Shown here: piece by piece, positions 6,659 to 57,276 of the stretch
Layout: each line of letters begins with the position of its first letter
How positions within the stretch are numbered: the first letter of the stretch is position 1
DNA from: Planctomycetota bacterium
GTDB lineage: Bacteria; Planctomycetota; GCA-002687715; DRQF01
Direction of reading: 5' to 3'
Assembly: GCA_027001995.1 (NCBI GenBank)
Contig: JALTLO010000022.1
Span: 816 to 64,815 of the forward strand
Length of the DNA stretch: 64,000 nucleotides
Notes under the pieces: model-generated
Databases searched by the model: none
What the model saw: only the letters and a program-made list of their open reading frames with translations
What the model was told of the DNA's origin: nothing
Program-made: the position numbers and the translations under genes

Positions 6659-7990
6659 TTATTCCCGCCACACGCCTCCTTGCCATTCCATGTTTTCCAT
6701 GTCCCAGTCGTCTGGAACCCATTCGGCGCCGTGCTTTTCAACGCCATGTCGGCAGTAGTCACATCCCCGCAATTGACAGCGACGATTGTCTTGATGAATC
6801 TTACGGATCTGATTGAGTTTCTTTGACTGCCAAGCGTCCGCGATTGTTGTCTCAGGGTTCTTGACAGTACGCCAGACACCGTCTTCCCCGCGCACCTTCT
6901 TTTCATTCGTACCAAGGTAGCGGCCGACAACTAAGTTCTGCTCTTCGTTGTGAGCGCCGGTGCAGGGCAAAAGAACACCGTTGGCTGAAAGAGTGAGTCT
7001 TTGGAAGGGATACTGGCAAGCCCAGTCGTCTAGAACCACATCATCCGGCAAGTCATCTTCGCGAAAATCCAAGAGTTCATTTACCGTAATCCAGCCCACA
7101 CCAGCTTTCTTCATGAAGTCATGATAGGCCTGGGGGTCTTTGGCGATAGCGGGATAAATCGTGTTTGTGCGGATCTGGGGCCGTGTCTTACCAGCGGCAT
7201 CTCGTGCGGCTACAAGTCGCTTGATGTTGCTGGCGACCACCTCGAAGGCATCATAGTCCGTGCCTTCTTTGTTCTTCGGCGTACGAATCTTGTTGTAGAC
7301 TGTGTTAAGACCATCAACAGAGAAGCTAATCCAGCTAGGCTCGGCTTCCACAAGAGCCCCTATCATCTCGTCGTCAAGAAGCTGGCCATGAGTGAGAGAG
7401 GTAATCTCCAAGATCCCCTTCTCCCGGGCATATTTCAAAACATCCGGAAAACGAACTTCTTTGCCATCTTCGTCCCGCCCGCGATACATGGATGATTCAC
7501 CACGCCAACTAAAGAGCATCGACGGAACATCCAAGCTGGCGCATTCATCGATGGCCGCCTTCACCACGGGCCAAGGCAACATCCTTTGGGCTCCAACGGC
7601 TGCATCCTGAAACTCCTCCGTCATGGTGTAGCACATGCTACAGCCCAAATTGCAAGTGCTCACAAGTTCAACAGTGACGGCCAGAGGCTGAGGACCGGGA
7701 TCAAACTCCTTGGCCCTACGATACCACTCAGACCGATAGTGATCGTAGCGCTGGCGTTCTTTGATTGTTGGAAATTGGGCGTGGAGGAAAGCCTCCTCGC
7801 GACTCATCGTATCGAAACTGAATTGAGAAGCATTCACTGGGACTTGGTCCTTGTGCCCCTGCCAGTCCTTCTTGAGCTGTTCTTCTCGCGGTCGAATCGA
7901 CGTTGTGCTGCGCGGCATTTCTTTCCCCAGTTGGCCCCAAGTAACCATGACCTCGATCTCATGAATGAGCCCCGAAAGGTGCATATTCAT
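6659..7990 (-). CDS. Radical SAM enzyme with C-terminal SPASM-like Cys cluster
   Basis: It has the CxxxCxxC motif (STCNLGCSMCYT) and a C-terminal Cys-rich tail (CQLRGCDYCRHG). Alternative starts lie at 7948 (MVTWGQ) and 7807. The first 14 codons of the listed ORF are made up of one copy of the CGATCTCATGAATGAG repeat. Confidence 0.75.
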   Translation of the reverse strand: MNMHLSGLIHEIEVMVTWGQLGKEMPRSTTSIRPREEQLKKDWQGHKDQVPVNASQFSFDTMSREEAFLHAQFPTIKERQRYDHYRSEWYRRAKEFDPGPQPLAVTVELVSTCNLGCSMCYTMTEEFQDAAVGAQRMLPWPVVKAAIDECASLDVPSMLFSWRGESSMYRGRDEDGKEVRFPDVLKYAREKGILEITSLTHGQLLDDEMIGALVEAEPSWISFSVDGLNTVYNKIRTPKNKEGTDYDAFEVVASNIKRLVAARDAAGKTRPQIRTNTIYPAIAKDPQAYHDFMKKAGVGWITVNELLDFREDDLPDDVVLDDWACQYPFQRLTLSANGVLLPCTGAHNEEQNLVVGRYLGTNEKKVRGEDGVWRTVKNPETTIADAWQSKKLNQIRKIHQDNRRCQLRGCDYCRHGVEKHGAEWVPDDWDMENMEWQGGVWRE

Positions 7991-8092
7991 GCGGTTCCAC
8001 GATTTGAGTTATCGGCGGCTTCAGCATGAATATTCAGTAGAATCGAGAAAGAAGATGAGGCGGCTGGAGAAAAGGCGTTTTGTGGTGCCAAA

Positions 8093-8721
8093 TTAGGCCA
8101 AATAGCGGATAACCTGAAAACACTCCACAGCCCTCAATCCGAAGGCGCGAGCATCCCTTTCATTCGCCAGGAGTATTTCTTCAACCAAAGCTGAAAGCCC
8201 TCTGCCGATCTCAGAATCATGGGCCAAGCAAGCTGCCTTTTTCTGCTCAAAGGACTCCGAAATATCTCGAATCAAGCGCCCGTCAAAAACCACAGATCCG
8301 GGATAGAGATTGCTACGATAGCAAAGAAACGTGGGTATATGCCGGCAAGCTGAAAGAGATGCACGGGCCAAGTTGTGATGATCAAGGTGAACATCCCCCA
8401 GCCAATGCCCATAGACAATATCCGGCTTCCATTGGTCGACTAAGCCCCGAATCGCCACAACCAAGGCCTCGTCACAAGCCAAATTGTTGGTTTCGAATTC
8501 TCCGCAGACAAGCTTCTCTACCCCCAGAATTTTGGCAGCAGCCTCTCCTTCGGCCCGGGCAACTCCCGCATCCCGAAGGGACTTCCCATTGAGACCGACG
8601 TAACCTGAATGGGTAGCCACAAACACGGCCACCTGGTCACCATCGGCTGTGTGTTTGGCCAAACTGCCACCGCAGCCAATCTCCACGTCGTCAAAATGTG
8701 CGCCAATGGCGAGTATTCTCA
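8093..8721 (-). CDS. PIG-L/LmbE family N-acetyl-sugar deacetylase
   Basis: MRILAIGAHFDDVEIGCGGSL matches the AHPDDE-type motif, and downstream His and Asp residues are present. The listed ORF carries a 22-aa N-terminal extension from a TTG start. The ATG (MRIL) is the likelier start. Confidence 0.8.
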
Positions 8722-8913
8722 TAGATTTCTCGTTGCTTTCCTCTTTGAGAATCGGGCTTTCAACCAAATAGCATGAATGAAAACCCAAGTTAGGAGCGAA
8801 TTTAGCCGACTAATTATGCATGGGGGCGACATGGAACACCCCGTTTGGGCTCATTCCTGGGCCACTGATATGTGCTATCCTACTGAGGATAAACAGCTTG
8901 TGAAGGAGCCCCT

Positions 8914-10062
8914 ATGTGGAAGGTACCCCTGTTTGACAGCAGCATCGGAGCTGAGGAGAAAGACGCCGTCTTGGCCGTTCTCGACTCTGGCTGGCTAACC
9001 ATGGGCCCCATTACCCAGGACTTTGAGCGGCGTTTCGCCGCTCACATCGGAGCCGAGCATGGCATCGCTGTCGCCAATGGCACCGCAGCTCTGCACATGA
9101 GTTTGGTGGCCTGTGACATCCAAGAAGGCGACGAAGTTATCTGTCCTTCCCTCACTTTCTCCGCCACGGCCAATGCAATTCTCCATGCGGGGGGTACGCC
9201 AATTTTTGCCGATGTCGCAAGCGAACTCAGCCTCAACATTTCTGCTGAGACGATCAAGCCCAAGATCTCGCCGATGACGAAAGCGATCTTAGTCGTCCAT
9301 TACGCTGGCTATCCATGCGACATGCCAGCCATCAATGCCCTGGCCGATGAGTATGGCCTCAAAGTTATCGAAGATGCAGCCCATGCCCCGGGTGCCCATT
9401 GGCAAGGCAAGTCTTGTGGAACTTTTGGTGCAACTGGCTGCTTTAGCTTCTACAGCAACAAGAACATGACCACCGGGGAAGGTGGCATGATTACTACCAA
9501 CGATGCTGAGCTGGCCGATCAATTGAGATTGCTACGCTCCCACGGCATGACGACGAGCACCAGCGATCGTCACAGCGGTAAGGCCCGTAGCTATGATGTA
9601 ACCACATTGGGATTCAACTACCGTATTGATGAGATTCGTAGTGCTATTGGTCGTTGCCAATTGGAGAAGCTCAAGGTGCGCAACCAAAAGCGAGCAACCC
9701 TCGACCAACTCTATCGCCAGCTTCTTACCGATGTAGAGGAAATCGTCGTCCCATTCGACTCAAATGTAGCATCAAATGGTTCCTCCTGCCACGTCATGTC
9801 AACAATTCTAAAAGCTGACTTAGGTGTTTCGGCTTTCCGTCAGTCGCTCAAGGAATCGGGTGTGCAAACAAGCCATCATTACCCGGCGATACACTTGCTT
9901 GCATGGTATCGCCAGACCTTCGGATACCAGGGTGGTCTATTGCCAATCACCGAGTCTGTATCGGAATCTCAGGTGACCCTTCCTCTCTATCCTCAGATGA
10001 CGGAAGAGATGGTAGAAATCGTTGTTGAGGCCATAAAATCTGCTTTGGTACGGAGTCATTAG
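8914..10062 (+). CDS. DegT/DnrJ/EryC1/StrS-family PLP-dependent sugar aminotransferase (PseC/LegC-like)
   Basis: The N-terminus (GPITQDFERRFA...AVANGTAALH) and the PLP-lysine region SFYSNKNMTTGEGG are present. An AAGGAG Shine-Dalgarno sits 6 nt upstream of the ATG. Confidence 0.85.
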   Translation: MWKVPLFDSSIGAEEKDAVLAVLDSGWLTMGPITQDFERRFAAHIGAEHGIAVANGTAALHMSLVACDIQEGDEVICPSLTFSATANAILHAGGTPIFADVASELSLNISAETIKPKISPMTKAILVVHYAGYPCDMPAINALADEYGLKVIEDAAHAPGAHWQGKSCGTFGATGCFSFYSNKNMTTGEGGMITTNDAELADQLRLLRSHGMTTSTSDRHSGKARSYDVTTLGFNYRIDEIRSAIGRCQLEKLKVRNQKRATLDQLYRQLLTDVEEIVVPFDSNVASNGSSCHVMSTILKADLGVSAFRQSLKESGVQTSHHYPAIHLLAWYRQTFGYQGGLLPITESVSESQVTLPLYPQMTEEMVEIVVEAIKSALVRSH

Positions 10063-11778
10063 ATGCGTATTTTAGGCCTCAATCACGACATGTTCATTTC
10101 GTCTGCCGCCTTGATAGAGGACGGAAACGTCATCGCCGCTGTGGCCGAAGAGAGACTCACGCGAGATAAGCGCACTCGGGCTTTTCCCCGCAAGTCTATC
10201 GCCTATTGCCTCGAAGAAGCAGGCATCAAGATCGAAGATGTGGACGCCATCGCAACGTCCTGGAACCCAGGCGCCTACTTTCGCAAATTCAATCCCCTGG
10301 TTTCAAACAAACGTCGACACATGGCTGAGCATCTCTTTGCGGTGCCTGACCATTTGATCGATATGTTCCCCCAAGGAGACCACACAGCTCCCTGGCTCGA
10401 ACTGCGTATCCCCATCATGGGCCACATGTGCCGCGTCTTCTATGTCACCCATCATAGTGCTCATGCAGCAAACGCCTATCATCTGTCGCCTTTCGAGGAT
10501 GCGGCCATCTTGACTGCTGATTCCCAAGGAGAATACGAATCCACAACATTCCAGCATGGGCAGGGCAGCACGATCAGTAAACTCCGTTCCATAGACTTCC
10601 CCCAATCTCTGGGAGCTTTCTACGCTACATTCACCGAATTTCTTGGCTTTCGACCCAACTCTGATGAGTGGAAAGTCATGGCCTTGGGTGCCTACGAAGA
10701 GGGCCACAACCCTTATGACGACATTCTAGAAGAGGTGGTATCCCTGGATCAAGACGGAGGGTACACCTTCGATTTATCCTTCTTCCAAGGATTCATGCCA
10801 GACAAACTTAATCTTTACACCCCTCACCTCATCGCGCGCTTTGGCGAGGCACGTCAAGCTGACGAAGAATTGTGCCAAAGGCATTTCCAGATCGCCGGCG
10901 CCGTCCAAAGACGAGCGGAAAATCTAGCATTTCACATGATGCGCCAACTCCAAAAGGAAACCGGCTCCAAGAATCTTTGCGTCGCCGGAGGGTTCTTCAT
11001 GAACAGTCTGCTCAACGGCAAGATTCGCGAAAACACGCCTTTCGAAAAGGTCTTCATCTCATCCTGCCCTGACGACTCTGGCAATGCCATTGGCGCTGCC
11101 CTTTATGCCATGAATGACATCTTGGGCAACGACACCCGGGTCCCACAGACTCACAACTATTTTGGACCAGCTTTTGGCAACACCGAGATCGCAGAAGCCA
11201 TTGAAAAGTATGGCCTGAAAGCTGAACCTTGCGAAAATATCGCTGAGTCATGCGCCCAACTCCTTGAGGAGGGAGCGCTGATTGGCTGGTTCCAAGGAAG
11301 AATGGAATTGGGCCAAAGAGCCCTTGGTTGCCGATCGATCTTGGCCGACCCCCGGCAAGCTTCCACCCGGGATCAAGTGAACTTGGCAGTAAAATACCGC
11401 GAGAAGTTTCGACCATTCGCACCTGCAATTCTAAAGGAAGAAGCAGCCAAGTGGTTCAACATCGATTCTGATGTGGAGGTCCCGTTCATGGAACAAGTCC
11501 ACATGGTGCGGCCAGAAAAACGAGATGCCATCCCTGCTTGTGTGCATGCTGATGGAACAGGACGGCTTCAAACCGTGGACGCCGAAACAAACCTCTTGTT
11601 TCATCAGCTGATTTCTGCATTTCGCAAGAGGACTGGGGTTCCGGTCTTGCTCAATACATCTTTTAACCTCAATGGCGAGCCTGTTGTTTCGAATCCCACT
11701 GACGCCATTCGGACGTTCTTCTCTTGTGGCTTAGACGTCTTGGCTATGGGTAACTATTTAATCAAGAAGAACGGATGA
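10063..11778 (+). CDS. NodU/CmcH-family carbamoyltransferase
   Basis: The N-terminus MRILGLNHDMFISSAALIEDGNVIAAVAEERLTRDKRTRAFP is typical of the family, and the protein is 571 aa. It is translationally coupled to the upstream gene (TAGATG). Confidence 0.85.
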   Translation: MRILGLNHDMFISSAALIEDGNVIAAVAEERLTRDKRTRAFPRKSIAYCLEEAGIKIEDVDAIATSWNPGAYFRKFNPLVSNKRRHMAEHLFAVPDHLIDMFPQGDHTAPWLELRIPIMGHMCRVFYVTHHSAHAANAYHLSPFEDAAILTADSQGEYESTTFQHGQGSTISKLRSIDFPQSLGAFYATFTEFLGFRPNSDEWKVMALGAYEEGHNPYDDILEEVVSLDQDGGYTFDLSFFQGFMPDKLNLYTPHLIARFGEARQADEELCQRHFQIAGAVQRRAENLAFHMMRQLQKETGSKNLCVAGGFFMNSLLNGKIRENTPFEKVFISSCPDDSGNAIGAALYAMNDILGNDTRVPQTHNYFGPAFGNTEIAEAIEKYGLKAEPCENIAESCAQLLEEGALIGWFQGRMELGQRALGCRSILADPRQASTRDQVNLAVKYREKFRPFAPAILKEEAAKWFNIDSDVEVPFMEQVHMVRPEKRDAIPACVHADGTGRLQTVDAETNLLFHQLISAFRKRTGVPVLLNTSFNLNGEPVVSNPTDAIRTFFSCGLDVLAMGNYLIKKNG

Positions 11779-12473
11779 AAACGGTCTGCATTCATCAACC
11801 CGATTTTGCTCCTTGGTTAGGATTCTTTGACCGGCTCATAGACGCCGATGTCTACGTTGTCTTCGACGATGCGCAATTTCTACGAAGAGGATGGCACCAC
11901 CGGGATAAGATTATAGGACCCCAAGGGACCCAGTGGCTTACGGTCCCCGTCCTCAAAAAAGGCCGCTACCACCAAGAGATACGAGACGTCAAAATCGACG
12001 AAAGCACGAACTGGCGGCGAAAACACTTGCAAACATTAACCAGTGTCTATGGTAGTCGCCCTGGCTTTGAATCGACTCACCATCAAATCACGGAGATATA
12101 CGATCGCCAGCATGAGCGCTTGATCGACCTCAACATGGATCTCATTTCTTGGCTCCTGAGAGTTCTTGACATCGAAGTTCAGATCTGCATGAGCTCTGAA
12201 TTCGGCCTCAAATCTAAGTCTACGGATCGTTTAGTCGAGTTAACACAAGCTTTGGGGGGCACGACGTACATTTCAGGTTTGGGTGCCAAGAACTACTTAG
12301 ACGAAGAGGCATTTCGCCAGCAAAACATCAAAGTACGCTGGCAAGAGTTCCTCCACCCCACTTGGGATCAAGGCCAAAGTACGTTTCTTTCTATGCTTTC
12401 CACACTAGACACCTTGTACCAAGGTGCAACTCAGACGAAGATGCTGTCCAGAGAGGGGCAGGACGAAAGTTGA
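11775..12473 (+). CDS. WbqC-like family protein (function unknown, found in O-antigen/nonulosonate clusters)
   Basis: The N-terminus MKTVCIHQPDFAPWLGFFDRL matches the WbqC-like signature (IHQPxxxPWLGxF). It overlaps the upstream gene's stop as ATGA. Confidence 0.6.
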   Translation: MKTVCIHQPDFAPWLGFFDRLIDADVYVVFDDAQFLRRGWHHRDKIIGPQGTQWLTVPVLKKGRYHQEIRDVKIDESTNWRRKHLQTLTSVYGSRPGFESTHHQITEIYDRQHERLIDLNMDLISWLLRVLDIEVQICMSSEFGLKSKSTDRLVELTQALGGTTYISGLGAKNYLDEEAFRQQNIKVRWQEFLHPTWDQGQSTFLSMLSTLDTLYQGATQTKMLSREGQDES

Positions 12474-12500
12474 ACAGCATCGTTAATCGGAGCCGAGCCC

Positions 12501-13469
12501 TTGACCATCGAAATCGTCAAACAAACGGACCACGACGGGACTAGTCTCGCCCGGGTCATAGCGCGACTTCGGCGCTTGCCCCATGATGAGATAGTAGGAT
12601 TAGATCAACATCTTCGCCGCCTTGCTCTGGAGCGGGATCTAAAGAAAAACTTGAACGACCCATCGGTCCACATATGGGTCGGCCGTGAAAAAGGCGAAGA
12701 CACGGGCATCGCAGTGCTCAAACATCTCACTTGGGATAGTGAGATCTTGGGGGTGAGCTGCGCTTCCATTGCAATTTATCTTACCGATTGCGATCAATCT
12801 TCCCGCCAAGCTACAGCCTCTCTCCTCATTCACCAGGCCCTACTCCGCTGTCGTACAGAGGACATTCACTTCGTTTCAACAAAAGTCTTCAGCGACCAAT
12901 TCGCTCAAATACACGCCCTTGAAGATCTCAATTTCCGTCTCATGGATGCAGAAATGATCTTGCGCTACCACGGCGAACGAGACGAGATTCAAGACGTCCC
13001 GGAAATCAACTTCGTCAAAAAACAGAAGGAAGAAGTCCCCGGGTTGTCCACCATGGGCAAGCTCTTTCACATGAGCCGCTTCTTCGCCGACCCTAAGTTA
13101 GGCCCCGAACGGGCAGACCGACTCTGGCAAGAAAGCGTTACTGATAGCTGTCGTGGCCATGCAGATAGTTTCCTCGTGGCTATGGAAGACAACAAGGCAC
13201 AAGGTTTCGTCACCTTCATGGACAACCCCGATTTCTTCGGTTTGGGGGGTCCATCCATACGCAACTTTTTCCATGTGGGTATCGCCCAAGAAGCCCAAGG
13301 CAAAGGCCTGGGCACTGCCCTCATTCATGCTGCCCTCCGTGACAGCAGCGCCTTTGACCACATCATGGTCGAAACCCAATCCCGTAACACAGGCGCCTTA
13401 GCTCTCTACCAAAAATGCGGTTTCCGCATCCTCGGCTCCCGCTTCGCCTTCCATTTGTGGATGGCTTAG
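12501..13469 (+). CDS. GNAT-family N-acetyltransferase (two GNAT-like halves; PseH-like candidate)
   Basis: The C-terminus HVGIAQEAQGKGLGTALIHAAL...ALYQKCGF is an acetyl-CoA-binding motif. The start is a TTG, and the exact start is uncertain. Confidence 0.7.
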   Translation: MTIEIVKQTDHDGTSLARVIARLRRLPHDEIVGLDQHLRRLALERDLKKNLNDPSVHIWVGREKGEDTGIAVLKHLTWDSEILGVSCASIAIYLTDCDQSSRQATASLLIHQALLRCRTEDIHFVSTKVFSDQFAQIHALEDLNFRLMDAEMILRYHGERDEIQDVPEINFVKKQKEEVPGLSTMGKLFHMSRFFADPKLGPERADRLWQESVTDSCRGHADSFLVAMEDNKAQGFVTFMDNPDFFGLGGPSIRNFFHVGIAQEAQGKGLGTALIHAALRDSSAFDHIMVETQSRNTGALALYQKCGFRILGSRFAFHLWMA

Positions 13470-13488
13470 CCCGCTTGCGACTGTCAAC

Positions 13489-13504
13489 GGCATGGATATT
13501 GCAT
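13489..13504 (+). promoter_or_regulatory. Candidate sigma-54 (-24/-12) promoter upstream of hpf
   Basis: CGGCAT-ggata-TTGCA, with correct GG-N10-GC spacing, lies 31 nt upstream of the hpf ATG. Confidence 0.4.
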
Positions 13505-13534
13505 GGTATTGGGTAGACAAACTGGAGATCAATC

Positions 13535-13870
13535 ATGACTTATCAACCGCAAGTAAGTTGGCGCAATTTGGCTCCCCACAAAGGTGTACTCCATGAAATC
13601 GACGACGCCATGGCAAAACTCGAAGAAAGATTCGGCCCACCTTCGAGTATGCGCATTGTCGCTTCCCCCGGTAAGACCGGTCACGGGGACCACTTGGCTA
13701 TGAACTTCAAGCTCGAAATGCACCTTCAAGGCCAGGATTTTATGGTTACACATGACCACAGGAGTAAAGATGACTCAGGATCACCGGTCTCTGGAATTCG
13801 ACACGCATTCGAAATCCTTAAGAACCAAGTGACCCACAACTTGGATCGAAGACGGGATATCTCCCGCTAA
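13535..13870 (+). CDS. hpf: Ribosome hibernation promoting factor / RaiA (S30AE, sigma-54 modulation protein family), short form
   Basis: The 111-aa product shows the alpha/beta pattern and the LAKLEERF and HAFEILKNQV segments typical of HPF/YfiA. Confidence 0.7.
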   Translation: MTYQPQVSWRNLAPHKGVLHEIDDAMAKLEERFGPPSSMRIVASPGKTGHGDHLAMNFKLEMHLQGQDFMVTHDHRSKDDSGSPVSGIRHAFEILKNQVTHNLDRRRDISR

Positions 13871-14136
13871 GAAGTCACAACCAGAGGATTCAATGAGCCC
13901 CGCCGCTGAGCTTTGTTCCGCTTAGCAACAACTTGATGGATCTTGGCTTTCTTCAGCCAGTTTCGTTGATGGCCAAAAGTCGGGGAATCTCACCCAGGGG
14001 GCCCATTCGAGAAAAGTTTATCCGACTTTTTTTGGTGCCAATGTGGATTCATGCCGAGTCCAGCAAGTCTCTGCCTCAAATGTTCATCTCGTCTGTCCCC
14101 AGCACGGGGACCCAAAGTAACAGCGCGGGCCCATGA

Positions 14137-14658
14137 ATGAGCCTGGCAAATAAAGGAAGAAAAATGACCGATTCAACAAAGGAAAACTCATGGGAGCGAC
14201 TCACAGCGAAGGACATGATGCAAAGCGGCATGGTCACTGTTTCTTTGGAAGCGACCGCCAGCGAAATCGAGTGTGTATTGGTAGAAAACAAGGTCTCTGG
14301 CGTACCGGTCCGGGACAGCGGCGACAAGATTGTCGGCCTTGTTTCCTGGCGCGACGTCATGGGATATTTCGCTGAGAACAGCCACAGCGATCCTCACAAT
14401 CCCCATGCATTCTATCGTTTCATCGATTCTGAGACTCTTGAACTCGGTAGCGAAATTGAGATCCCCGTTGATGAGACGGTGACAGCAAGGGATGTCATGA
14501 GCACAGAACTTCTCACAACCCCGGCCAATTCATCTCTCAAAGTCGTGGCCAAACTCATGACCGATCACGGTGTCCACCGTGTCCTCGTGACCAACCCATT
14601 TGGCGACATCATCGGTATTCTCAGCACACTTGATATCCTGCGTTCCTTGGCTAGCTAA
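14137..14658 (+). CDS. CBS-domain pair protein
   Basis: Two CBS motifs are present: one at DMMQSGMVTVS...VSGVPV (region 4-60) and one at DVMSTELLTTP...VHRVLV. Confidence 0.8.
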   Translation: MSLANKGRKMTDSTKENSWERLTAKDMMQSGMVTVSLEATASEIECVLVENKVSGVPVRDSGDKIVGLVSWRDVMGYFAENSHSDPHNPHAFYRFIDSETLELGSEIEIPVDETVTARDVMSTELLTTPANSSLKVVAKLMTDHGVHRVLVTNPFGDIIGILSTLDILRSLAS

Positions 14659-14760
14659 GCCACCTTTGGAGAGACGCCACCCAAGGCGATTTTGATAAGT
14701 CGCAACCCTGGATTCGAGTTTCTTGACCACGACATCGAAGGAGCAAGGGGCCAGGTATAG

Positions 14761-14796
14761 CGCAATAAGAAAAGAGGCGACTTTTCTTATTGCGCG
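14761..14796. repeat. Perfect 15-bp inverted repeat (GCGCAATAAGAAAAG-aggcga-CTTTTCTTATTGCGC)
   Basis: This is read directly from the sequence. No U-tract follows it on either strand. Confidence 0.6.
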
Positions 14797-14965
14797 GTGC
14801 GAAAAATGACTCACTCAATTCATCTTGATCCCCACCCAATCAGAGAGAAGGATCTACCTGTTGATGATGTCTCGCAATCTACGGAATTATCTTTAGCTTA
14901 AGATCCTTTCGTCGCGGGTTTCAGCACCTTCGCTGTTCAACGGAATTGGAAAACTTGGAGAATAC

Positions 14966-16571
14966 GATGATGATGAGCCGTACCTTCGCATGCTTCTTAG
15001 CACTTGCCTTGGTTCTCGGATTTTCAGGCTCTGCACTGAGCCAGGACAGAGATGACTTGGCGCGAGAAGTGCGCCGCCTCAACAAGAAACTCAATGCAAT
15101 CAGCACCGTTCAAGAACGGCTTGTTGGTGAGAACGAGCATTTACGCAAGGACAATGCTGAACTGCGTAGTTTGATCAACAACGAACGAGTTCCAGTGAGC
15201 GAACTGGAAACCTCGTTAAATGCTCTGGGCGACACAATCGAAAACGCTGGAACGGTAGTAGAATCAACTGCCAACCCCATCACCCTTTCTGGGCAATTCC
15301 GGTTTCGTGCCGGTTTCATTTCGAACCGTGATTTCGGCGCAAGCCCGAATTCGAATGGTGGCGACTTGGGAGATGACAGCGGTACTTTCGTTGATGCTCG
15401 GATCAACGTGGCCTTCGACTTCGCCCTGGCCCGCAATGTAACAACTCACTTCGAATTGATTTCCTCTGGACTTTTCGAGAACGGAAACACAAACCAAAAC
15501 ACGGGAACGTTGGCTGAAGTCGATCTTTATCAAGGTTACGTCCATTTCGACAAGCTTTTCGGAACCGACGAGATTGGACTCAGAGCAGGGCGACAAGAGA
15601 TTGCACTTGGCAACGAGTTGTTCTTTGGCAACAATAGTTTCTTCGGTGGTGAGACATTTGACGCAACCCTTGTCTGGTGGGCGCAGAAAGAATGGAGCCT
15701 CATTTTCGTATGGGCAAAATTCGACATCGCTCAAGCCAGCAATCCAAGTGGCCAACCTTACCCCACCTACTTAGCTGGCCATGGGTTCGATGACGACGAG
15801 GCTTACGCCCTCTACTTCACCCTCAACACCATCGAGAATCACGTTCTTGACCTCTACTACTTCTTCCTCAACATAAACAACGTTGCGGGAGCATCTACGG
15901 GAACTTTGGGCAACGGATTCCCACCAGACACATTTGCTCACGTCCTTGGCATTCGCTTGGCCGGAGACCACGCCAGCATCGCTGAAGGGTTGGACTACAA
16001 CATTGAATTCGCCTACGAGACTGGGGACATCAATAGTGCCGCCATTGACTTGGAAGGGTTTATCGTCGAAGCAGAGTTAGGCGTTACCTTCAACGCCGAC
16101 ACTAAATTCCGGGTGTTTGGACGCTTCGTTTATGCGAACGGCGCCAGCGGCAACAATTCTGGATTTGTTCCTTTGTTTCCTGATCGTCAGGAGCAAGTCA
16201 ATTGGGACGACCACACTGCCAGTCGGGCTCGTTGGGGTTTGATGAACATCATTCCTTTGACCAACGTAATCTCCGGACAAATCGGATTCACCTTCCGTCC
16301 CGCAGAGGATTGGATCTTCGGTATGACCGTTCTCGGAGCTTGGCGTGACGAAGATGTCATCACGACGGATGGTAATTCCAAAGGTGGTATTGGTTGGGAA
16401 ATCGATGCTTTCGCGGACTACCGTTATAGCACCGACACCACGATCAGCTTGGGTCTCGGGGTCTTCCTTCCTACAGAAGGCGCGCCGCTTGAGAATTCCC
16501 CCATTAGCGCTGGCAATAACGAAGACGAAGCCGCATTCCTCTTCTATCTCCAGTCACTGACAACCTTCTAG
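14966..16571 (+). CDS. Outer-membrane beta-barrel protein (porin-like) with N-terminal periplasmic coiled coil
   Basis: It has a signal peptide (MMMSRTFACFLALALVLGFSGSALSQ) and a heptad coiled coil (LNKKLNAIS...LRKDNAELRSL). The rest alternates hydrophobic, Gly/Asn/Asp-rich beta strands, and it ends in a terminal Phe (LQSLTTF). GGAG lies 8 nt upstream of the ATG. Confidence 0.6.
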
Positions 16572-16596
16572 CCTCAATCCATTTCGATCGACTGAA

Positions 16597-16628
16597 AGAG
16601 CACGGCGATAGCCGTGCTCTTTTTTTTG
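16597..16628 (+). terminator. Rho-independent terminator
   Basis: The hairpin AGAGCACGGC-gata-GCCGTGCTCT is followed by T8. Confidence 0.75.
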
Positions 16629-16966
16629 CTAGATGTCGCCCCACAACAAACGACACTCCTCGAATAAAAACCCACGACCACTGGGTATCCAAAAGATTAT
16701 TGGTGAGATTCCTCAATTCTCCTCAACAGCCATGCAAAGGGCTTCCGACAAGGGCTACAAGGAAAAAATGCCGTCAGGACAAATCGTTTCCTCGTGAAAC
16801 AGGACTTCCGGATAGGCACCAACGGGCCCAGATGCGATCGCGGCAGAACCGAACGCTGCGGAGAAATGGATAGAACCCAAGAAAAACTGCTTTAAGTGCA
16901 GGGGGCATCCTCCCGTGAGGATCAGTTCATAGGGCTCGATTTAATTGGAATAGTTTGGAGAGAAGG

Positions 16967-18562
16967 ATGCTTTATCGCACCGTAATTTGCACATTCACTT
17001 TGGCCCTCACTTTGGGCAGCGCGTGCTTGGGACAGACACAAGATCGAAATGACTTTGAAGCTAAGCTAAGACACTTAAACGCAAAGCTCGAGAACATTGG
17101 CGCCACCCAGGAGCGTCTGATCATCGAGAACGCAAAACTGCGCCGTGACAATGACGAACTCCGTGACCTTGTTGATAACCGACAAACGGCACACTCGGAG
17201 CTCGAGGTTTCCTTGAATGCATTGGCAGATGCAGCTCTCGATTCTGAAGGCGCAGCAGTGGTCTCCAATGCTAACCCCATTACCGTAAGTGGCGCTTTCC
17301 GATTCCGTCTTGGGTTCACAGCCAACCGTGATTTCGGAAGCAGCAATCAGGGCAACGACTCCAGCGACGACAACGGCACTTACATTGACGGACGCATCAA
17401 TGTTGCTTTCGACTTTGCTTTGGCGAGGAACGTCACCGGACGATTCGAGATGATTTCCGCTGGCCTATTCGAGAATAGTGCAGCCAATCACAACACTGGA
17501 ACGCTTGATGAAGTTGATCTCTACCAAGGCTACATTGCTATCGACGGGATCTTTGGACGCGATGAGTTAGGACTCAAAATCGGTCGACAGGAGATTGTCT
17601 TAGGCAGTGAACTGTGGTTTGGGAACAACAGTTTCTACGGCGGCGAAACATTCGATGCGGTTCTCGCATGGTGGAATCAAGACGAGTTCTTCCTCGGTTT
17701 GGTATGGGCCAAGATGGATATTCGAAGCACTTACAATGCGGCTGGACACCCCTACGTTCCTTTTCAAGTTGGCAATGGCTACGATGACAATGACGCCTTC
17801 GCCGCTTACTTCACCTTAAAGACAATCGAGAACCATGTTCTGGATCTCTACTATTTCTTCTGGAACGACAACGGTCCCGGAGGAACATTCGGAACCTTGG
17901 GCAATCTCTTCCCTGCTGACACATTCGCCCATGTTTTTGGCATTCGCTTAGCTGGTGACTTGCCAAACGTGGCGGCAGGTTTGGACTACAGCTTGGAATT
18001 CGCTTATGAAACCGGTGACATCGACAGCTTAGGCATCGACATGGAAGGTTTCATCTTTGAAGCCGGTGTTGGAATAACTTTCAACGCTAACAATCTCCTT
18101 CGTGTGGCAGCCGGTTTCATCTTTGCAGAAGGACCAGATTCTGGTGACTCTGGCTTCGTCCCTCTATTCGTCGACCGTCACGAGCAGGTCAACTGGGATG
18201 ACCACACAGCTAGGCGCGCTCGCTGGGGTTTGATGGACATCATTCCCCTCACCAACGTGATAGCTGGTCAAATCGGCCTGACATTCCGACCTGCTGAAGA
18301 TTGGATCTTCGGTGCCACCTTCTTGGGGGCTTGGCGGGATCAATCGGTCTTGACCACAGACGGCGATACCGAAGATGGTATTGGCTGGGAGATCGATGTA
18401 TTCGCCGACTATCGCTACAGCGCCGAAACAACAATCAGTGTTGGAGTTGGGGTTTTCATCCCGAATGAAGGGGCGCCGCTTCAAAACTCAGCTCTGAGTG
18501 CCGGTAACAATGAGGATGACGCAACCTTCCTGATGTACCTGCAAGCATTGACCACCTTCTGA
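16967..18562 (+). CDS. Outer-membrane beta-barrel protein, tandem paralog of 14966-16571
   Basis: It is about 60% identical to the upstream gene and has the same architecture: signal peptide, coiled coil, beta-barrel region and C-terminal LQALTTF. GGAGAGAAGG lies upstream of the ATG. Confidence 0.6.
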   Translation: MLYRTVICTFTLALTLGSACLGQTQDRNDFEAKLRHLNAKLENIGATQERLIIENAKLRRDNDELRDLVDNRQTAHSELEVSLNALADAALDSEGAAVVSNANPITVSGAFRFRLGFTANRDFGSSNQGNDSSDDNGTYIDGRINVAFDFALARNVTGRFEMISAGLFENSAANHNTGTLDEVDLYQGYIAIDGIFGRDELGLKIGRQEIVLGSELWFGNNSFYGGETFDAVLAWWNQDEFFLGLVWAKMDIRSTYNAAGHPYVPFQVGNGYDDNDAFAAYFTLKTIENHVLDLYYFFWNDNGPGGTFGTLGNLFPADTFAHVFGIRLAGDLPNVAAGLDYSLEFAYETGDIDSLGIDMEGFIFEAGVGITFNANNLLRVAAGFIFAEGPDSGDSGFVPLFVDRHEQVNWDDHTARRARWGLMDIIPLTNVIAGQIGLTFRPAEDWIFGATFLGAWRDQSVLTTDGDTEDGIGWEIDVFADYRYSAETTISVGVGVFIPNEGAPLQNSALSAGNNEDDATFLMYLQALTTF

Positions 18563-24751: not shown

Positions 24752-25208
24752 ATAAGACAACGGAGATTCAGTTCCACAAGTGGCCTGGATTCACACCAAC
24801 CGGAAAAAAAGGTCTCTTCCACCAGAAAAGCAAACGCCCCAGGGCAGAACGCCCCAGACCCAAGCCAACCATCGTCGGGAGCAACTCCAAGGGTTTTCAA
24901 CAAACACAGTACTCGGGCCAAGGTCAAGGAAGAGGATATCAAGAATGGCGCCTCACATAGATAAACAGTGAGACATCCTCTTCGTTTTTCATTCACATGG
25001 TCCTGCGGAACGACAAACCCAGAGATCGAACGCCAGGCAAACTCTGGCTATAATGTGTCCCGAAGAGAAGTCTTAAGAGGTGCTGCCCCAAGCACTCAAT
25101 GAGGAGGGCATTTCCTCACGCGACGGCCGCGATCCCATAAATGAATCGGGATAGGAACAGGCAAGGTGGCACCGAAGCACACTCTTGGGCGACGACTTGT
25201 GGGAGAAC

Positions 25209-29168: not shown

Positions 29169-29189
29169 CCTGACTCCTTCATGAGATCG
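29169..29189 (-). repeat. Copy of the CGATCTCATGAAkGAGTCrGG repeat (reverse orientation)
   Basis: The minus strand reads GGGGCCGATCTCATGAAGGAGTCAGG. It sits immediately 3' of the 29168 stop. Confidence 0.55.
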
Positions 29190-29347
29190 GCCCCGAGATT
29201 GTGAAGATTGGCTGTCCACAGAACCACAACGAATACCCGGCGCAACTCCCTTCTGCGCCACTTGCCTTGTTTTCCTCGAAGCGAAGAGGCCCCCACCGTT
29301 AACGATGGGGGCCTCATTTTTTCGGACGATCACCGAGGTCGCTGAGC

Positions 29348-36867: not shown

Positions 36868-37224
36868 TCAATCGCCCAAATAGATACACCCGCTGGTGCA
36901 GGTTTCGCGAACGACGATCTTAGTGAGCTGCCCCAAACTTGGCTTCAATTCCTGCCAAATCCATTTGGCCAAGTTCTCACTGGTGGGATTCTCCAACCCT
37001 GGGATCTCATTGAGGTAGTGGTGATCAAGACGCTCATAAGTGGGGCGAAAGGCAGCCTTCAGGTCTGAAAAGTCCATCACCCAACCAGTCTTGGCATCGA
37101 CGTCCCCGGAGACATGGATCTCAATCTCAAAAGAATGCCCATGGAGACGGCCACACTTATGTCCCTCTGGTACGTTGGGCAAGAGATGCGCGGCCTCAAA
37201 CCGAATAGCTTTGAATATGTCCAT
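36868..37224 (-). CDS. queD: 6-carboxy-5,6,7,8-tetrahydropterin synthase
   Basis: It has the zinc-ligand motif [15 protein letters not shown] (CxxxHGH). The protein is 118 aa with PTPS family topology. Confidence 0.85.
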
Positions 37225-37317
37225 GTCGCAATCTCGCTGTGATTCTTATCTCTATCCACAATTTCAATGGGATGGCCAGCAATCAAGGGGCAAAGCGATT
37301 TATCGCGGGATGTTCCT

Positions 37318-37791
37318 TCAGTCCCTTGCTTCCGCAAGAGCTTCGATCTGCTGCCGGAAAGCAGCAATTTCTTGGGTAGAATACCGGGACTCTGGCAAAT
37401 CGCTGCCCCAAACGACCCCAGGCCAACAGAAATCCTCAGCAGACCGCCCAATGATGTGAACATGAAGCTGAGGAACCATGTTGCCAATGGCCGCGACGTT
37501 TACTTTCATGACTCCAGGTTGACTACAGACGAATTTGCTGACCGTGTCCATGGTCGCCCTCAGTTCGCCTCTTGAAGTTAGAGGCAATTCAAAGATGTCC
37601 CTTTCCTCGACCTCCGGCACCAAGATGAACCAGGGAATGGCGGCGCAACGATGGAGGAGAACGTGGCTGAACCCTATGTGTCCCAAGTTAATGGTATCTG
37701 CCTCTAACTGTCGGTGAATTTGAAACACGTCTTCGCCCTCCCCGCAAAAAAACTCCGAGCTTGACGCTCGGAGTTTACTTTCCTCATTCAT
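37318..37791 (-). CDS. HIT-family (histidine triad) protein
   Basis: The motif LHVHIIGR is a HxHxHxx histidine triad. Confidence 0.8.
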   Translation of the reverse strand: MNEESKLRASSSEFFCGEGEDVFQIHRQLEADTINLGHIGFSHVLLHRCAAIPWFILVPEVEERDIFELPLTSRGELRATMDTVSKFVCSQPGVMKVNVAAIGNMVPQLHVHIIGRSAEDFCWPGVVWGSDLPESRYSTQEIAAFRQQIEALAEARD

Positions 37792-37822
37792 GAATTGATG
37801 GCCAAGTCATGAAGTCATAGTT

Positions 37823-38339: not shown

Positions 38340-38912
38340 ATGGTCTCTCCAAGAGGTGTTCTTGTTTGAAATGCGGGGAACAACCCGCAACAGGTTTCGG
38401 TTTGGAAGGAAACCATAGACTGTGCAACCCATCCTTGCTCAGAAGCCAGCTTCCTATTGGCATATTATCAATACCCATAGGCATTTCCACAGAACGCTGG
38501 AGGAAACCGTGGCAAATCGGCATCACGATGTATATCACTCGCCTTAAGTGTATAAATTTCAAGGGTTTGCTATCGCACCTCCGACTTCGTCGGCCGCGTT
38601 AATTTAGTTCACTCAATGATCTGGGTGGAGAAAATTGCCAGAGGAATTGGACCCAAGTCGGGAGGTTTCTTTCCATGAGGCCAATCGCTCTTGTGGGCAC
38701 TTCATGAATCCGAAGCCTAACCCAAATAATAATTCACGACCACGAGGTCGCATGAACGAGGAGAAGATCTCACAGATTACCCAGGCGAGGTCGCAATCCT
38801 GGTTATGATTAGGAACACTCTGCCACTCCTGGCCGTGTTGTGTTTTGAAAAGAAGCCTTAAGAATCGTTGTTCTGAGCTTTCTTTGCCGGGTATTTTCTC
38901 ACACAACGACCA

Positions 38913-38933
38913 CGATCTCATGAATGAGCCGGG
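38913..38933 (+). repeat. Copy of the CGATCTCATGAATGAGCCGGG repeat
   Basis: It is read from the sequence and lies about 210 nt upstream of the GT2 gene. Confidence 0.55.
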
Positions 38934-39143
38934 CTAAGGATCATGAAAGCTTAGGCCTCGTCGGCATCCCCAAGCGAAGCTGGTGTCTTAAGGATGATTA
39001 CCCAATCAAATCCCATGACGACAAACATGGACAACCATTCCACTTTCACTTTCAAATCGGTAGCCTCTTGCCGTTACATCCCTGGCCCTTCGAGCGTAAA
39101 ATGACCTCTCGAAGATCGAACTCAAGGAACACATCAAAAATCC

Positions 39144-40793
39144 ATGTCTGACCACATGCCCGCGAAGAAGCGCCCCACATTGCGACAACGACTTGGCCGC
39201 CTGTGGCGAATTCTAAGAGGGCAGCAAGTCCACCGAGACTACAGCGCTTTTCTCGGAAACTACGATGCATGGCGTCAGCTCTTCGTTCTCCCTGAACCAG
39301 AGAACCACAACCAGGCTCCGAGGCAACTGAAGAAGAGCTTGAGTTTTCATTTGCTGATCTCTTGCCAAGAGGAGGTCGTTGGCCAAAATGTCGAACCGAA
39401 CGATTGTTCTGTACTTTCTCTTCCTTGGAGTCAAACAGAAGTTTCTTGGGGAAGCCAAATACCAAAGAGCGATTCTTGGGACGCCCCATGGACCATCATT
39501 GTTGACAAGTCTGACATTCTTCTCCCACTTGCCTGTCAACAAATCAGCGCAGCTATTGAGAAGAATCCAAAGGCCCATGTTTTTTATGGCGATGAAGAGT
39601 TCACCAACCAAGACGGCCATCTTGAACCTTTTATGAAACCCCAATGGTCTCCTGAATTGTGGGAGTCCACCGACTATCTGGGAATCCTGGTGGTCCGCAG
39701 CTCTCTCATCAAAACAAAGATCACCATCCCTGATCTCGTAGCAGAGATCTTGGGGTGTCAAGAAGATGGCCACATCATTCGAATTCCCCATGTTCTCTGT
39801 CAAAAGAAAAATCGATCCGGGGCCACCGGATCAGGATCACGGCTGGCTCAAGTCAGCCGATTCCATCAGCGACGAGGCTGCCAAGGAGGAAACACACAGG
39901 TCATTTCAAACTCAACTCTCCACGTCCAGCATGCTTTACCTGAGAATCTGCCAAGAGTGAGCATCGTGATTCCATCCCGAGATCGCAAGAAGCTCTTAGC
40001 GGCATGCGTTGAGTCTCTTCTTCGACTGACGGCCTACGAAAACTTCGAAATCGTCCTCATCGACAACGATTCTCAACTGAAGGAAACGAAAGAGTGGTTT
40101 CAGTCAATCCAGACTCAAGAAAAAGTTCGCGTTCTCTCCTACCCATATCCATTCAATTTCGCAGCCATCAATAACTTTGGCGCCGCAAAGTCTGAGGGGG
40201 AGATTCTCGTTTTCCTCAATGATGACACCACGGTCATTGGCCCTCACTGGTTAACAGAGATGGTCCGTTTAGCCCATAGACCAGACATCGGAGCGGTTGG
40301 CGCCCTTCTCTACTACCCCAATGACACGATCCAACATGCCGGTGTGGTTTGCGGCATCTCCAAGGCTCATATTGCTGGGCATATCGACCGTGGTTTGCCC
40401 AAAAGCGCACCTCCAGGTCCTGCCGGAGTCGATTGTGTCCATAATTATTCCGTTGTCACCGGAGCCTGTACCGCCCTGCGAAGAAAAGTTTTTGAGAAAG
40501 TTGACGGTTTCGATGAACAGTTCTCAATCTGCTACAACGATGTTGATCTCTGCCTCAGAATCCAGGACGCAGGCTTTAGAAATGCGTGGACACCTCACGC
40601 CCTACTCTATCATCATGAGAACATCAGCGTGGCAGAACGCAATGAAACACAAGCTCGTGTCTATGATTTTGAAGCTCAACTCATGCGCAAGCGCTACGGG
40701 AAAAGGCTGCTCAACGATCCAGCATACAACCCGAACTTTGCCCTCGATGGTGAGAGACGCGTCTTGGCAGCCCAACCCCGGATCAACAGCTAA
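39144..40793 (+). CDS. Family 2 glycosyltransferase with about 250-aa N-terminal extension
   Basis: VSIVIPSRDRKKLLAACVESLLRLTAYENFEIVLIDNDS is the GT2 N-terminal signature. A DxD-containing segment follows (LNDDT). Confidence 0.8.
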   Translation: MSDHMPAKKRPTLRQRLGRLWRILRGQQVHRDYSAFLGNYDAWRQLFVLPEPENHNQAPRQLKKSLSFHLLISCQEEVVGQNVEPNDCSVLSLPWSQTEVSWGSQIPKSDSWDAPWTIIVDKSDILLPLACQQISAAIEKNPKAHVFYGDEEFTNQDGHLEPFMKPQWSPELWESTDYLGILVVRSSLIKTKITIPDLVAEILGCQEDGHIIRIPHVLCQKKNRSGATGSGSRLAQVSRFHQRRGCQGGNTQVISNSTLHVQHALPENLPRVSIVIPSRDRKKLLAACVESLLRLTAYENFEIVLIDNDSQLKETKEWFQSIQTQEKVRVLSYPYPFNFAAINNFGAAKSEGEILVFLNDDTTVIGPHWLTEMVRLAHRPDIGAVGALLYYPNDTIQHAGVVCGISKAHIAGHIDRGLPKSAPPGPAGVDCVHNYSVVTGACTALRRKVFEKVDGFDEQFSICYNDVDLCLRIQDAGFRNAWTPHALLYHHENISVAERNETQARVYDFEAQLMRKRYGKRLLNDPAYNPNFALDGERRVLAAQPRINS

Positions 40794-42410: not shown

Positions 42411-42436
42411 CCCGCCCAATTCACAACCTCGGGGCG

Positions 42437-42457
42437 ACGATCTCATGAATGAGTCGG
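42437..42457 (+). repeat. Copy of the CGATCTCATGAATGAGTCGGG repeat
   Basis: The extended form CTCGGGGCGACGATCTCATGAATGAGTCGGGTT is shared with the 29169 copy. Confidence 0.55.
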
Positions 42458-42676
42458 GTTGGCGCGAATCTTCAACTGACAGCTAAGAACGCAAGTGTAT
42501 GAAACTCCCCTCCAAACTCTATTCCCTGGTTTTCTAAGGTTCGAGCTTTCGAAACGCCCGGGGCAAGATTCCCAGTTTCAACGATTGAATCCTTGAAACA
42601 TGGGTGAAGCACCATAATTTAGGGGTGGGCTCGAGTCCCGCAACACCAGAATCAAGTCTTTCAGAAAGGGTAACCG

Positions 42677-50124: not shown

Positions 50125-50135
50125 GAAGGTCCGAT

Positions 50136-50699: not shown

Positions 50700-50704
50700 G
50701 TCCG

Positions 50705-53551: not shown

Positions 53552-53554
53552 AAA

Positions 53555-56483: not shown

Positions 56484-56936
56484 CTATGACTTACGTTTGA
56501 TCAGCTGGATGACACGGTCCAGTTCTTGCAAGAAGCGCGAGCGGTCCCGGGGCTGAAGAGGCTTGGGGCCCCTCGTGACCTCCCCGGCAGCCCGAAGCTC
56601 GGTCATCAGATCACGGGTCGCCAAGACATGGCCAATGTTATCTTCGGTGAAGATCTTCCCTTTGGGTCCGAGCACCATGGCTTCTTTCTTGACGCAACGG
56701 TCAGCCAGAGGCACATCTGCAGTGATAACAATGTCATTGGCCCCCACTTGCTCAACGATCCAATCATCAGCCTCGTCACTCTTGCTACCCACGACCTCCA
56801 AACGAATCCTCTTGGACTCCGGTACAGTCATCCAAGAATTTGCTACCAAGGTAACAGATAACTCATAGCGTCGAGCAACCTTGTAAACCTCATTCTTAAC
56901 CGAGCAAGCGTCCGCGTCGATATAGATGTGAAGCAA
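56484..56936 (-). CDS. yaiI: YaiI/DUF188 (UPF0178) family protein
   Basis: MLHIYIDADACSVKNEVYKVARR matches the YaiI N-terminal signature (IWVDADACP). Confidence 0.75.
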   Translation of the reverse strand: MLHIYIDADACSVKNEVYKVARRYELSVTLVANSWMTVPESKRIRLEVVGSKSDEADDWIVEQVGANDIVITADVPLADRCVKKEAMVLGPKGKIFTEDNIGHVLATRDLMTELRAAGEVTRGPKPLQPRDRSRFLQELDRVIQLIKRKS

Positions 56937-56966
56937 GAGAAGTATCCTTTGAATTCAGCAGCAGAT

Positions 56967-57215
56967 TCACGAAGAGGAGTTCAGGTGCGCTTTTCTTTTA
57001 CATTGAACCATCAAGAAAACGTAGAAAACGCCAAAGGCAGCATTCAGCACGGCCGCAACCCAAACGATCCAAGGAGCTAAGAAGAAATCTCCCGACGGTG
57101 GAATGACCCCAGCGATGGCAAGAACCAAGGGCGAGAACATCCCCACGATTGCAATCGATTGGACTGGCTTGAAGACCGAATCTGATTTCTGAGATTTTTC
57201 CACGTTTCTCTCCAC
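56967..57215 (-). CDS. Small membrane protein (2 TM), hypothetical
   Basis: It has two hydrophobic helices. I find no homology. Confidence 0.3.
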   Translation of the reverse strand: MERNVEKSQKSDSVFKPVQSIAIVGMFSPLVLAIAGVIPPSGDFFLAPWIVWVAAVLNAAFGVFYVFLMVQCKRKAHLNSSS

Positions 57216-57254
57216 TTTCAGTGATCACCACAGGACTATAGCCCGAATTATCCA

Positions 57255-57276
57255 CGATCTCATGAATAAGTCAGGG
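57255..57276 (+). repeat. Copy of the CGATCTCATGAATAAGTCAGGG repeat
   Basis: It lies about 135 nt upstream of the trmH-family gene. Confidence 0.5.

Follow-up and report, generated by a model that had tools for sequence, protein, structure and literature searches.

A 21-nt intergenic repeat of an uncultured planctomycete, probably derived from the ends of IS1380-family insertion sequences

We analysed a window of 64,000 nucleotides from a Planctomycetota bacterium (NCBI GenBank assembly GCA_027001995.1, contig JALTLO010000022.1, positions 816 to 64,815 of the forward strand), in which a 21-mer, CCCGRCTCATTCATGAGATCG when read from its outer end, recurs between genes. This 21-mer is probably the terminal repeat of an insertion sequence (IS) of the IS1380 family, more specifically of its ISPsp9-like clade, present here as fragments without host function. 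At least eight such fragments of about 45-110 nt, each with one terminus, are scattered in the intergenic DNA of this lineage. As judged by sequence comparison, the 21-mer is homologous to the terminus that transposases of the IS1380 clade recognise, and comparison between relatives showed that the copies turn over and drift neutrally.

The repeat family and the termini of IS1380-family elements

A search of the window with CGATCTCATGAATGAGYCGGG at up to three mismatches returned six matches (7954-7974, 25130-25150, 38913-38933, 42438-42458 and 57255-57275 on the plus strand, 29169-29189 on the minus strand) compared with 0.00 across 100 dinucleotide-preserving shuffles. A preliminary description of this DNA had called the repeat too long and too conserved for chance, and the count bears this out. 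All five full copies listed there are present, although the one at 42438-42458 had been placed one base off; the further copy at 25130-25150 had been missed. A profile derived from the copies added a diverged copy at 14126-14146 (+; E=2e-4), the members (E<=2e-4) being separated from the background (E>=0.28), and a weak profile match (E=4.3) followed by inspection revealed a degenerate, indel-bearing eighth copy at 2750-2768 (-). We named the copies by coordinate (c7954 and so on; the eighth is c2747), and a ninth, L002b, is located in a relative, L002. A sixth, partial copy that had been proposed at the start of the HIT gene was treated as chance: at 37783-37793 (-) only the 11-mer TCATGAATGAG matches, two chance matches are expected for this class of 11-mers, and the profile gives E=4.4.

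The copies had been described as lying outside genes or at their edges, and all eight are indeed intergenic, none falling within a coding region, even though coding sequence makes up about 90% of the window (P about 1e-8). Their density is about one per 8 kb, six of the eight are on one strand, and an independent repeat finder reported no other dispersed short-repeat family in the window. The shared units measure 45-110 nt, and none of the eight encodes a transposase.

The link to IS1380 came from scanning the metagenome collection for a slightly degenerate form of the motif, which returned six loci. In half of them (L008, L011 and L012), near-identical sequence extends over at least 130 nt on the side that is interior in the planctomycete copies, and the three loci diverge right after ...AAGCCGGG; such an abrupt divergence is the signature of the terminus of a repeated element. 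On the opposite strand of L012, an open reading frame (ORF) that begins about 115 nt inward corresponds to the N-terminal half of an IS1380-family transposase (PF13701, 1e-38; NF033539 transpos_IS1380, 1e-52), the NF033539 score being just under the cut-off because the contig holds half of the protein. Homologs of this transposase are annotated as IS1380 family or ISPsp9 family in Halomonas and Vreelandella, and ISPsp9 was captured experimentally from Pseudomonas (PMC4133298).

We read four complete elements of this clade, with transposase identities of 45-82%, and in each the motif stands at both ends in inverted orientation. The first, on an ENA metagenome contig (L014), is 1561 bp long, has the termini CCCGCCTTATTCATGAGACCG ... 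CGCCCTCATGAATAAGGCGGG and shows no duplication. The other three are bounded by perfect 5-bp AT-rich target duplications: CTTAA on both sides in a plasmid of Halomonas sp. KO116 (L033), ATCAA in a gut metagenome (L035) and ATAAA in a contig of 65% GC (L034). Over all nine termini of the five ISs, 11-12 of the 13 outermost bases of the planctomycete consensus CCCGRCTCATTCATGAGATCG are matched, and at the left end of L012 the match reaches 20 of 21 bases; the window copies are most like this left-end variant (the left inverted repeat, IRL). The terminal inverted repeats (IRs) of the clade start with CC..., and so does the planctomycete consensus. Moreover, the IS boundary coincides exactly with the point beyond which most planctomycete copies cease to resemble one another. 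The link to the IS rests on a match exactly at the IS terminus and on an IR consensus that holds across the clade.

The remaining matches in public data are of another kind. A genome-collection scan with the strict motif gave 0 matches, and a representative-genome scan with a relaxed motif gave 15, none related to the element; no representative genome carries the family. Eight of these 15 lie in a single gene that is conserved across eight Verrucomicrobiota MAGs (metagenome-assembled genomes) and whose forward strand encodes ...DLMNESG..., and the remainder in regions with an ORF. The three other loci of the metagenome scan were likewise rejected as ORF regions unrelated to the element. In six of the seven non-element loci that were checked individually, the longest ORF over the match reads ...LIHEI(G/V)... 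on the reverse strand, and these six include all three that were checked among the representative-genome matches outside the Verrucomicrobiota gene. The non-element matches (L018-L032, L007, L009 and L010) are coding coincidences, a caution for database scans based on the motif only, where an exact match to the 21-mer elsewhere may be of this type. The contig of 65% GC and the gut metagenomes (L034 and L035) were also considered as planctomycete sources of IS1380 and set aside, neither being planctomycete. Some copies of the clade are decaying: the transposase is split into two ORFs in L034 (2501-3927; 326 + 156 aa) and in L035 (2501-3888; 356 + 109 aa), and a copy in Halomonas cerina (L013) has no recognisable left end and lies among fragments of reverse transcriptase and Y2 transposase.

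The sequence just outside the terminus adds a further likeness. The pentamers outside the nine planctomycete termini are CTAAG (three times), TTAAC, ATAGG, GTAGC, AAAGG, CAAAT and TTGGC, with TAA or TAG at +2 to +4 in six of the nine copies against 1.7% in non-coding background (P about 1e-9, or about 1e-5 when the four independent lineages alone are counted). By their composition, these AT-rich, TA-containing outer pentamers are of the same kind as those duplicated by the complete ISs. Such a pentamer accounts for the adjacency to stop codons, for the preference for intergenic DNA in a genome of 52% GC and for the in-frame stop of a short ORF that opens in the motif; indeed, it contains the TAA of a 244-aa gene at c29169 and the TAG of an acetyltransferase gene at L002b. 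Transposition of the IS1380 type into AT-rich pentamers would have deposited the fragments, and a preference for AT-rich targets would favour stop codons and intergenic DNA, promoter regions among it.

If the 21-mer is indeed an IS1380-clade terminus, an element with a terminus almost identical to a marine gammaproteobacterial one has colonised an uncultured planctomycete lineage.

Single-ended units and their turnover

The copies differ in how much of the neighbouring sequence they have in common. In subfamily A (c38913, c25130 and L002b), about 81-88 nt are common on one side of the motif, making a unit of about 102-109 nt that occurs at three unrelated sites; c38913 and L002b, for instance, have an identity of 92% over 104 nt although their loci are unrelated. 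Subfamily B (c29169 and c42438) has about 22 nt in common on the interior side, and subfamily C (c7954, c14126 and perhaps c57255) about 15-20 nt. On the outer side similarity ends within about 5 nt, except for a gapped 10-mer common to the two B copies. With its similarity confined to one side, the motif behaves as one end of units of variable length. Two details noticed in advance were borne out: a long stretch shared by the copies at 29169 and 42438 was confirmed over about 33-41 bp, and a TCACAAC box was found in c29169, c42438 and c38913, and weakly in c25130.

The length of the subfamily A unit, 102-109 nt (38832-38938, 25041-25165 and L002 14552-14655), is close to the 104-105 nt that separate the left end of the IS from the transposase ATG. 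We considered whether the subfamily A interior might be the 5' untranslated region of the IS; the lengths coincide, but the sequences are not similar past the first 23 nt or so, and the idea was abandoned.

Relatives of the planctomycete allowed us to follow the copies over time. The genes of the window are planctomycete-like, and one protein is identical in the MAG GCA_015485455.1. The DNA of this species that was covered amounts to the 64 kb of the window plus about 25 kb. A relative with about 96% protein identity is represented by GCA_054016375.1 (L002 and L003), and relatives at 66-71% by syntenic DNA from GCA_024275615.1 and JGI 3300053785 (L004, L005, L016 and L017). A profile search of 73 kb from the 66-70% relatives found 0 family members, despite the shared gene order around c7954, c29169 and c38913, and at the c7954 site about 45 nt including the motif are missing from the 70% relatives L004 and L005. 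At closer range, the overlap of about 14 kb between the window and L002 has two copies in common (c7954 and c14126) and two that are polymorphic: L002b lies within about 156 nt that are absent from the window, and the segment with c2747 measures 77 nt in the window but 21 nt in L002, its flanks being well conserved. For c2747, a clean duplication of 5 bp (TTAAG/CTAAG) was considered and rejected, as global alignment shifts the gap and neither placement reaches about 95% flank identity.

The two orthologous copies differ between the window and L002 at 2 of 21 positions (c7954; flanks 93.5% identical) and at 3 of 21 (c14126; flanks 90% identical), a pooled 5 differences in 42 bases compared with 6.5-10% in the flanking intergenic DNA. 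The motif thus evolves no slower than neutral sequence, which is evidence against an operator and against any other host function that depends on its sequence. Under an IS1380 origin, the element would have been active since the split of the populations that are now at about 96% protein identity.

The repeat also affects assembly. A Logan contig of the 96% relative (L003) ends in the repeat (5992-6015), 3 nt inside, as expected of a multi-copy sequence. MAG contigs of this lineage probably break at the repeat elements, which would explain assembly breaks in its MAGs, and the repeats could be used as strain-level markers.

How single ends came to be scattered can be pictured in two ways within an IS1380 origin. 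One-ended, non-autonomous units may have been moved in trans by a transposase encoded elsewhere, with one good end and one surrogate end; or the fragments may be deletion relics of full IS copies. We give the two routes roughly even weight. Propagation of one-ended units is favoured by the left-end likeness of all copies, by the shared subfamily A unit and by the density of about one copy per 8 kb, while relics stay plausible because the junctions are not clean.

The first route has precedents in the IS1380 family, where one-ended transposition by ISEcp1 and in the transposable modules (TMos) of ISPme1 and IS1247a uses an authentic IR and a surrogate end and carries variable DNA (PMC9330008, PMC3281130, PMC3316993). 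Tentatively, the window copies might constitute a family of one-ended, transposase-less mini-TMos, each with an authentic left-end repeat and a surrogate 25-90 nt inside, moved by an IS1380-clade transposase located elsewhere. Were this so, the match of 20 of 21 bases to the terminus of a Halomonas IS would imply that the parent IS had recently moved between phyla in the ocean. The window units resemble the ISEcp1 and ISPme1 TMos in having a constant authentic terminus, a variable other boundary that is barely IR-like and differing lengths; however, TMos hold a whole IS, including the transposase, together with captured DNA, whereas the window units are tiny and transposase-less, and their mobility is deduced solely from subfamily copies that share both boundaries.

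The second route has a precedent in the remnant of about 200 bp of ISEcp1 upstream of blaOXA-232, an end remnant after deletion as cited in PMC9330008. The window copies resemble such solo IS ends in that a single terminus and a short stretch of interior are left in an intergenic region. The known cases are isolated, whereas the window has eight in 64 kb, with subfamilies that share interior boundaries, and this points to propagation over independent deletions.

Compared with the ISPsp9-like ISs themselves, the window copies have the same terminal sequence CCCGSCTYATTCAYGAG..., the same outermost base and AT-rich pentamer flanks, the IRL giving the best match (20/21); they differ in lacking a transposase gene, in having one terminus and no demonstrable duplication, and in measuring 45-110 nt instead of about 1.56-1.72 kb. 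With miniature inverted-repeat transposable elements (MITEs) derived from ISs, such as Correia elements, they have in common that they are short, non-coding, multi-copy and intergenic, with an IS-shared terminus, restricted to a lineage and polymorphic between strains; unlike these, they have no detectable second terminal IR or demonstrable target duplication. The copies thus work like a non-autonomous repeat derived from an IS: they are not ISs, because they have no transposase, not classical MITEs, because they have no second IR, and not repetitive extragenic palindromic (REP) elements, because they form no hairpin.

Planctomycetes are described as rich in ISs, and IS1380 as over-represented between co-oriented genes (PMC9208149). 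In our full-text searches, neither miniature elements nor solo-IR families derived from IS1380 were described, nor was there anything specific for Planctomycetes, and no one-ended counterpart of MITEs was described for any IS family in the literature searched. The single-ended architecture is the one aspect that could prove new, and the density of solitary ends raises the possibility that one-ended transposition of the IS1380 type may propagate tiny non-autonomous units.

Several observations weigh against an IS1380 origin or complicate it. The link to the IS came from an exact-pattern scan in which we estimate that about 1-2 chance matches are expected. Secure target-site duplications (TSDs) were not found, a test for 5-mer direct repeats at the inner boundary giving 3 of 9 against 1.9 expected, and three comparisons of filled and empty sites resemble replacement of a short filler rather than clean insertion. 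Past the IS boundary, a few bases are still common to subfamilies A and B (CTAAG and, following a gap, AACTGACAGC), contrary to what a strict terminus model would lead one to expect. Moreover, if the solitary ends were mere deletion relics, eight of them in 64 kb would be a high density.

Neither a second end nor a transposase was found in the planctomycete sequence. No copy has a significant second IR, whether within 3 kb or in the adjacent 110 nt. Within 3 kb the best inverted partner was at or below the null maximum for all copies, while L014, used as positive control, reached 34 (null maximum 24); over the adjacent 110 nt the inverted partner was within the null for eight of nine copies, the other being c42438 (14/20, uncorrected p about 0.009). 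This partner, CCCGCCCAATTCACAACCTCG, led us to consider the TCACAAC box as a degenerate left IR, an unproven idea that we did not retain, as the box is unremarkable against the window null in eight of nine copies. Two pairs of distant partner ends, 37783/c38913 and 13320/c14126, were also rejected, their scores being just at the null maximum. A tblastn search with six transposases of the clade, run on the window and on about 100 kb of DNA from related planctomycetes (L001-L006), gave noise only (E>=0.48) and thus neither an IS1380 transposase nor a remnant of one, and a transposase stands beside the motif in non-planctomycete loci only. We assume that a cognate transposase is present in the planctomycete lineage. 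MAG contigs break at full-length ISs, and for that reason the absence of a transposase from these contigs is expected, though it still counts as a negative finding.

Alternative explanations

The repeat could be an independent, lineage-specific interspersed repeat whose likeness to the IS1380-clade terminus is coincidental or convergent, which we consider unlikely. This explanation would fit the 1-2 chance matches estimated for an exact-match scan of a huge collection, where the other matches proved to be coding coincidences, as well as the failure to see a transposase, a partner IR or a secure TSD in the planctomycete and the similarity within some subfamilies that crosses the supposed terminus. 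A chance match would, however, not coincide precisely with the end of an IS, in the same register and with its interior lying to the same side. The likeness extends to nine termini from a clade of 45-100% transposase identity, with 11-12 of 13 outer bases, and the AT-rich, TA-containing flank matches the TSDs of that clade.

A non-random 21-mer upstream of envelope and polysaccharide genes is easily taken for a regulon motif or a leader peptide, and an IS1380 origin avoids this mis-annotation: the ATG, the five-codon ORF and the distances to genes are by-products, and no host function is required. The preliminary description had indeed proposed an operator. In its fullest form, a lineage-specific regulator of cell-envelope or polysaccharide genes would act through the repeat as an operator or promoter element, possibly a co-opted IS end. 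Three copies in the same orientation do lie upstream of plus-strand genes, as had been reported, at measured distances of 210 nt (GT2), 218 nt (a 314-aa protein) and 134 nt (TrmH); six of the eight copies share a strand, and promoters are possible in IS1380-family ends (PMC9330008). Nevertheless, the operator is improbable. Its geometry is inconsistent, c25130, c29169 and L002b facing gene 3' ends or abutting stop codons when the interior side is taken as reference. In the syntenic relatives at 66-70% the motif does not precede the same genes, relatives at about 96% differ by gain or loss of copies, and at orthologous sites conservation of the motif does not exceed that of its flanks. The variants do not keep the half-palindrome CTCAT-N2-ATGAG. 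A sigma-70 promoter was examined and rejected for the two copies in the scanned stretch, c38913 and c42438, neither of which is overlapped by a sigma-70-type consensus.

A conserved mini-ORF or leader peptide, M-N-E-[P/S]-G, exerting translational control over downstream genes, is highly improbable. It had been claimed that every copy has an ATG opening a tiny ORF of 5-25 codons. In c38913, c29169 and c57255 the order is indeed ATG AAT GAG YCN GGN followed by an in-frame TAA or TAG, and codons 4 and 5 vary at their third positions; c25130 keeps the in-frame stop but begins with ATA instead of ATG. The lengths, however, range from 2 to more than 20 codons, with a stop at codon 3 in L002b and a continuation over 13 to more than 20 codons in c7954 and c42438. 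No Shine-Dalgarno-like sequence stands ahead, four copies face gene 3' ends, and several have no downstream gene in that orientation. Finally, ATGAATAAG(G/C)CGGG is also present at Halomonas IS termini, where unrelated flank follows; the ATG belongs to the IS terminus and the stop to the AT-rich outer sequence.

A palindrome of the REP or bacterial interspersed mosaic element (BIME) type, mobilised by a REP-associated tyrosine transposase (RAYT; IS200/IS605-like), or a structured small RNA, would likewise be short, intergenic, multi-copy and sometimes placed right after stop codons, but is very improbable: the DNA folds no better than shuffles in any copy (z +0.1 to -1.2), the variants do not preserve pairing, there are no paired inverted copies, and neither the GTAG nor the CGTC tag of REPs (PMC3733652) is visible. 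The REP- or MITE-like element came closest of the three readings suggested earlier: an interspersed repeat derived from a mobile element is what stands, and the hairpin of a REP and the second IR of a MITE are what fell. A structured RNA or riboswitch was rejected in the same way, since the copies fold like shuffles, Rfam gave no match at the gathering threshold over the window nor at E<=1 on the c38913 region (38700-39150), and no tRNA or tmRNA genes were found in the window.

Individual copies and their surroundings

The degenerate copy c2747 (2750-2768, -) reads CGATTGTGAATGAGTTGGG on the minus strand, then CTAAG, and lies between two minus-strand genes. Copy c7954 (7954-7974, +), CGATCTCATGAATGAGCCCCG, is located between the stop codon of a PIG-L gene and the start of a radical SAM gene (about 7918), with the radical SAM gene on its interior side. 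It had been described as sitting at the 5' edge of the latter gene. This impression came from the longest ORF (6659-7990, -; 443 aa, start at 7990), which over-extends: gene calls in relatives, of 419-428 aa, place the start near 7918, and the copy lies inside the longest ORF only, about 36 nt upstream of the likely start. The diverged copy c14126 (14126-14146, +), CGGGCCCATGAATGAGCCTGG, is followed after 17 nt by the likely start (about 14164) of a gene of about 164 aa.

The subfamily A element at 25041-25165 (+) contains the 21-mer CGATCCCATAAATGAATCGGG at 25130-25150, with about 88 nt of shared interior on its left, and its outer end faces the stop codon of a Ser/Thr kinase gene 58 nt away. 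In the other subfamily A element of the window, 38832-38938 (+), the 21-mer at 38913-38933 matches the consensus exactly; 81 nt of interior precede it, and the GT2 gene starts 210 nt downstream.

Both subfamily B elements lie close to gene ends. In the element at 29157-29211 (-), the outer end of the 21-mer (29169-29189, -) abuts the TAA stop of the 244-aa gene (28434-29168), which confirms an earlier remark that one copy comes directly after a stop codon. The element at 42416-42483 (+) contains another exact match (42438-42458), 27 nt past the stop codon of a 532-aa gene and 218 nt upstream of the gene for the 314-aa protein. Copy c57255 (57255-57275, +), CGATCTCATGAATAAGTCAGG, occupies the divergent intergenic region between a minus-strand gene of 78 aa and the SpoU/TrmH methylase gene, and is identical in the independent assembly GCA_015485455.1 (L001).

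In the region of c29169, about 92 nt separate the stop codon from a shared terminator, compared with about 21 nt in L016. This terminator is a GC-rich palindrome of 30 nt, GGCCCCCACCGTTAACGATGGGGGCC (29286-29315), with T-runs on both sides; it lies between convergent genes and looks like a bidirectional terminator. An equivalent hairpin is kept in L016, a 66% relative, and marks the ancestral part of the intergenic region beside the c29169 insertion. Gene content differs at two places in the stretches compared (window 27920-28434 and 37224-37318): L016 has a 554-aa FG-GAP protein (2566-4230) and a 1170-aa sulfatase (13160-16672), both absent from the otherwise syntenic window.

Positions 1-14000 of the window hold a conserved cluster for nonulosonic-acid and polysaccharide biosynthesis that is syntenic in L002 and down to the 70% relatives L004 and L005. 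Its genes include those for a GT4 glycosyltransferase, an epimerase, a CMP-sugar transferase, NeuB and a radical SAM-SPASM protein, together with a PIG-L deacetylase, a DegT aminotransferase, a carbamoyltransferase, WbqC and a GNAT acetyltransferase. Further along, two tandem paralogs lie on the plus strand at 14946-16571 (541 aa) and 16955-18562 (535 aa), and within them a repeat, D1, is 74% identical over 300 nt between 16158-16457 and 18149-18448.

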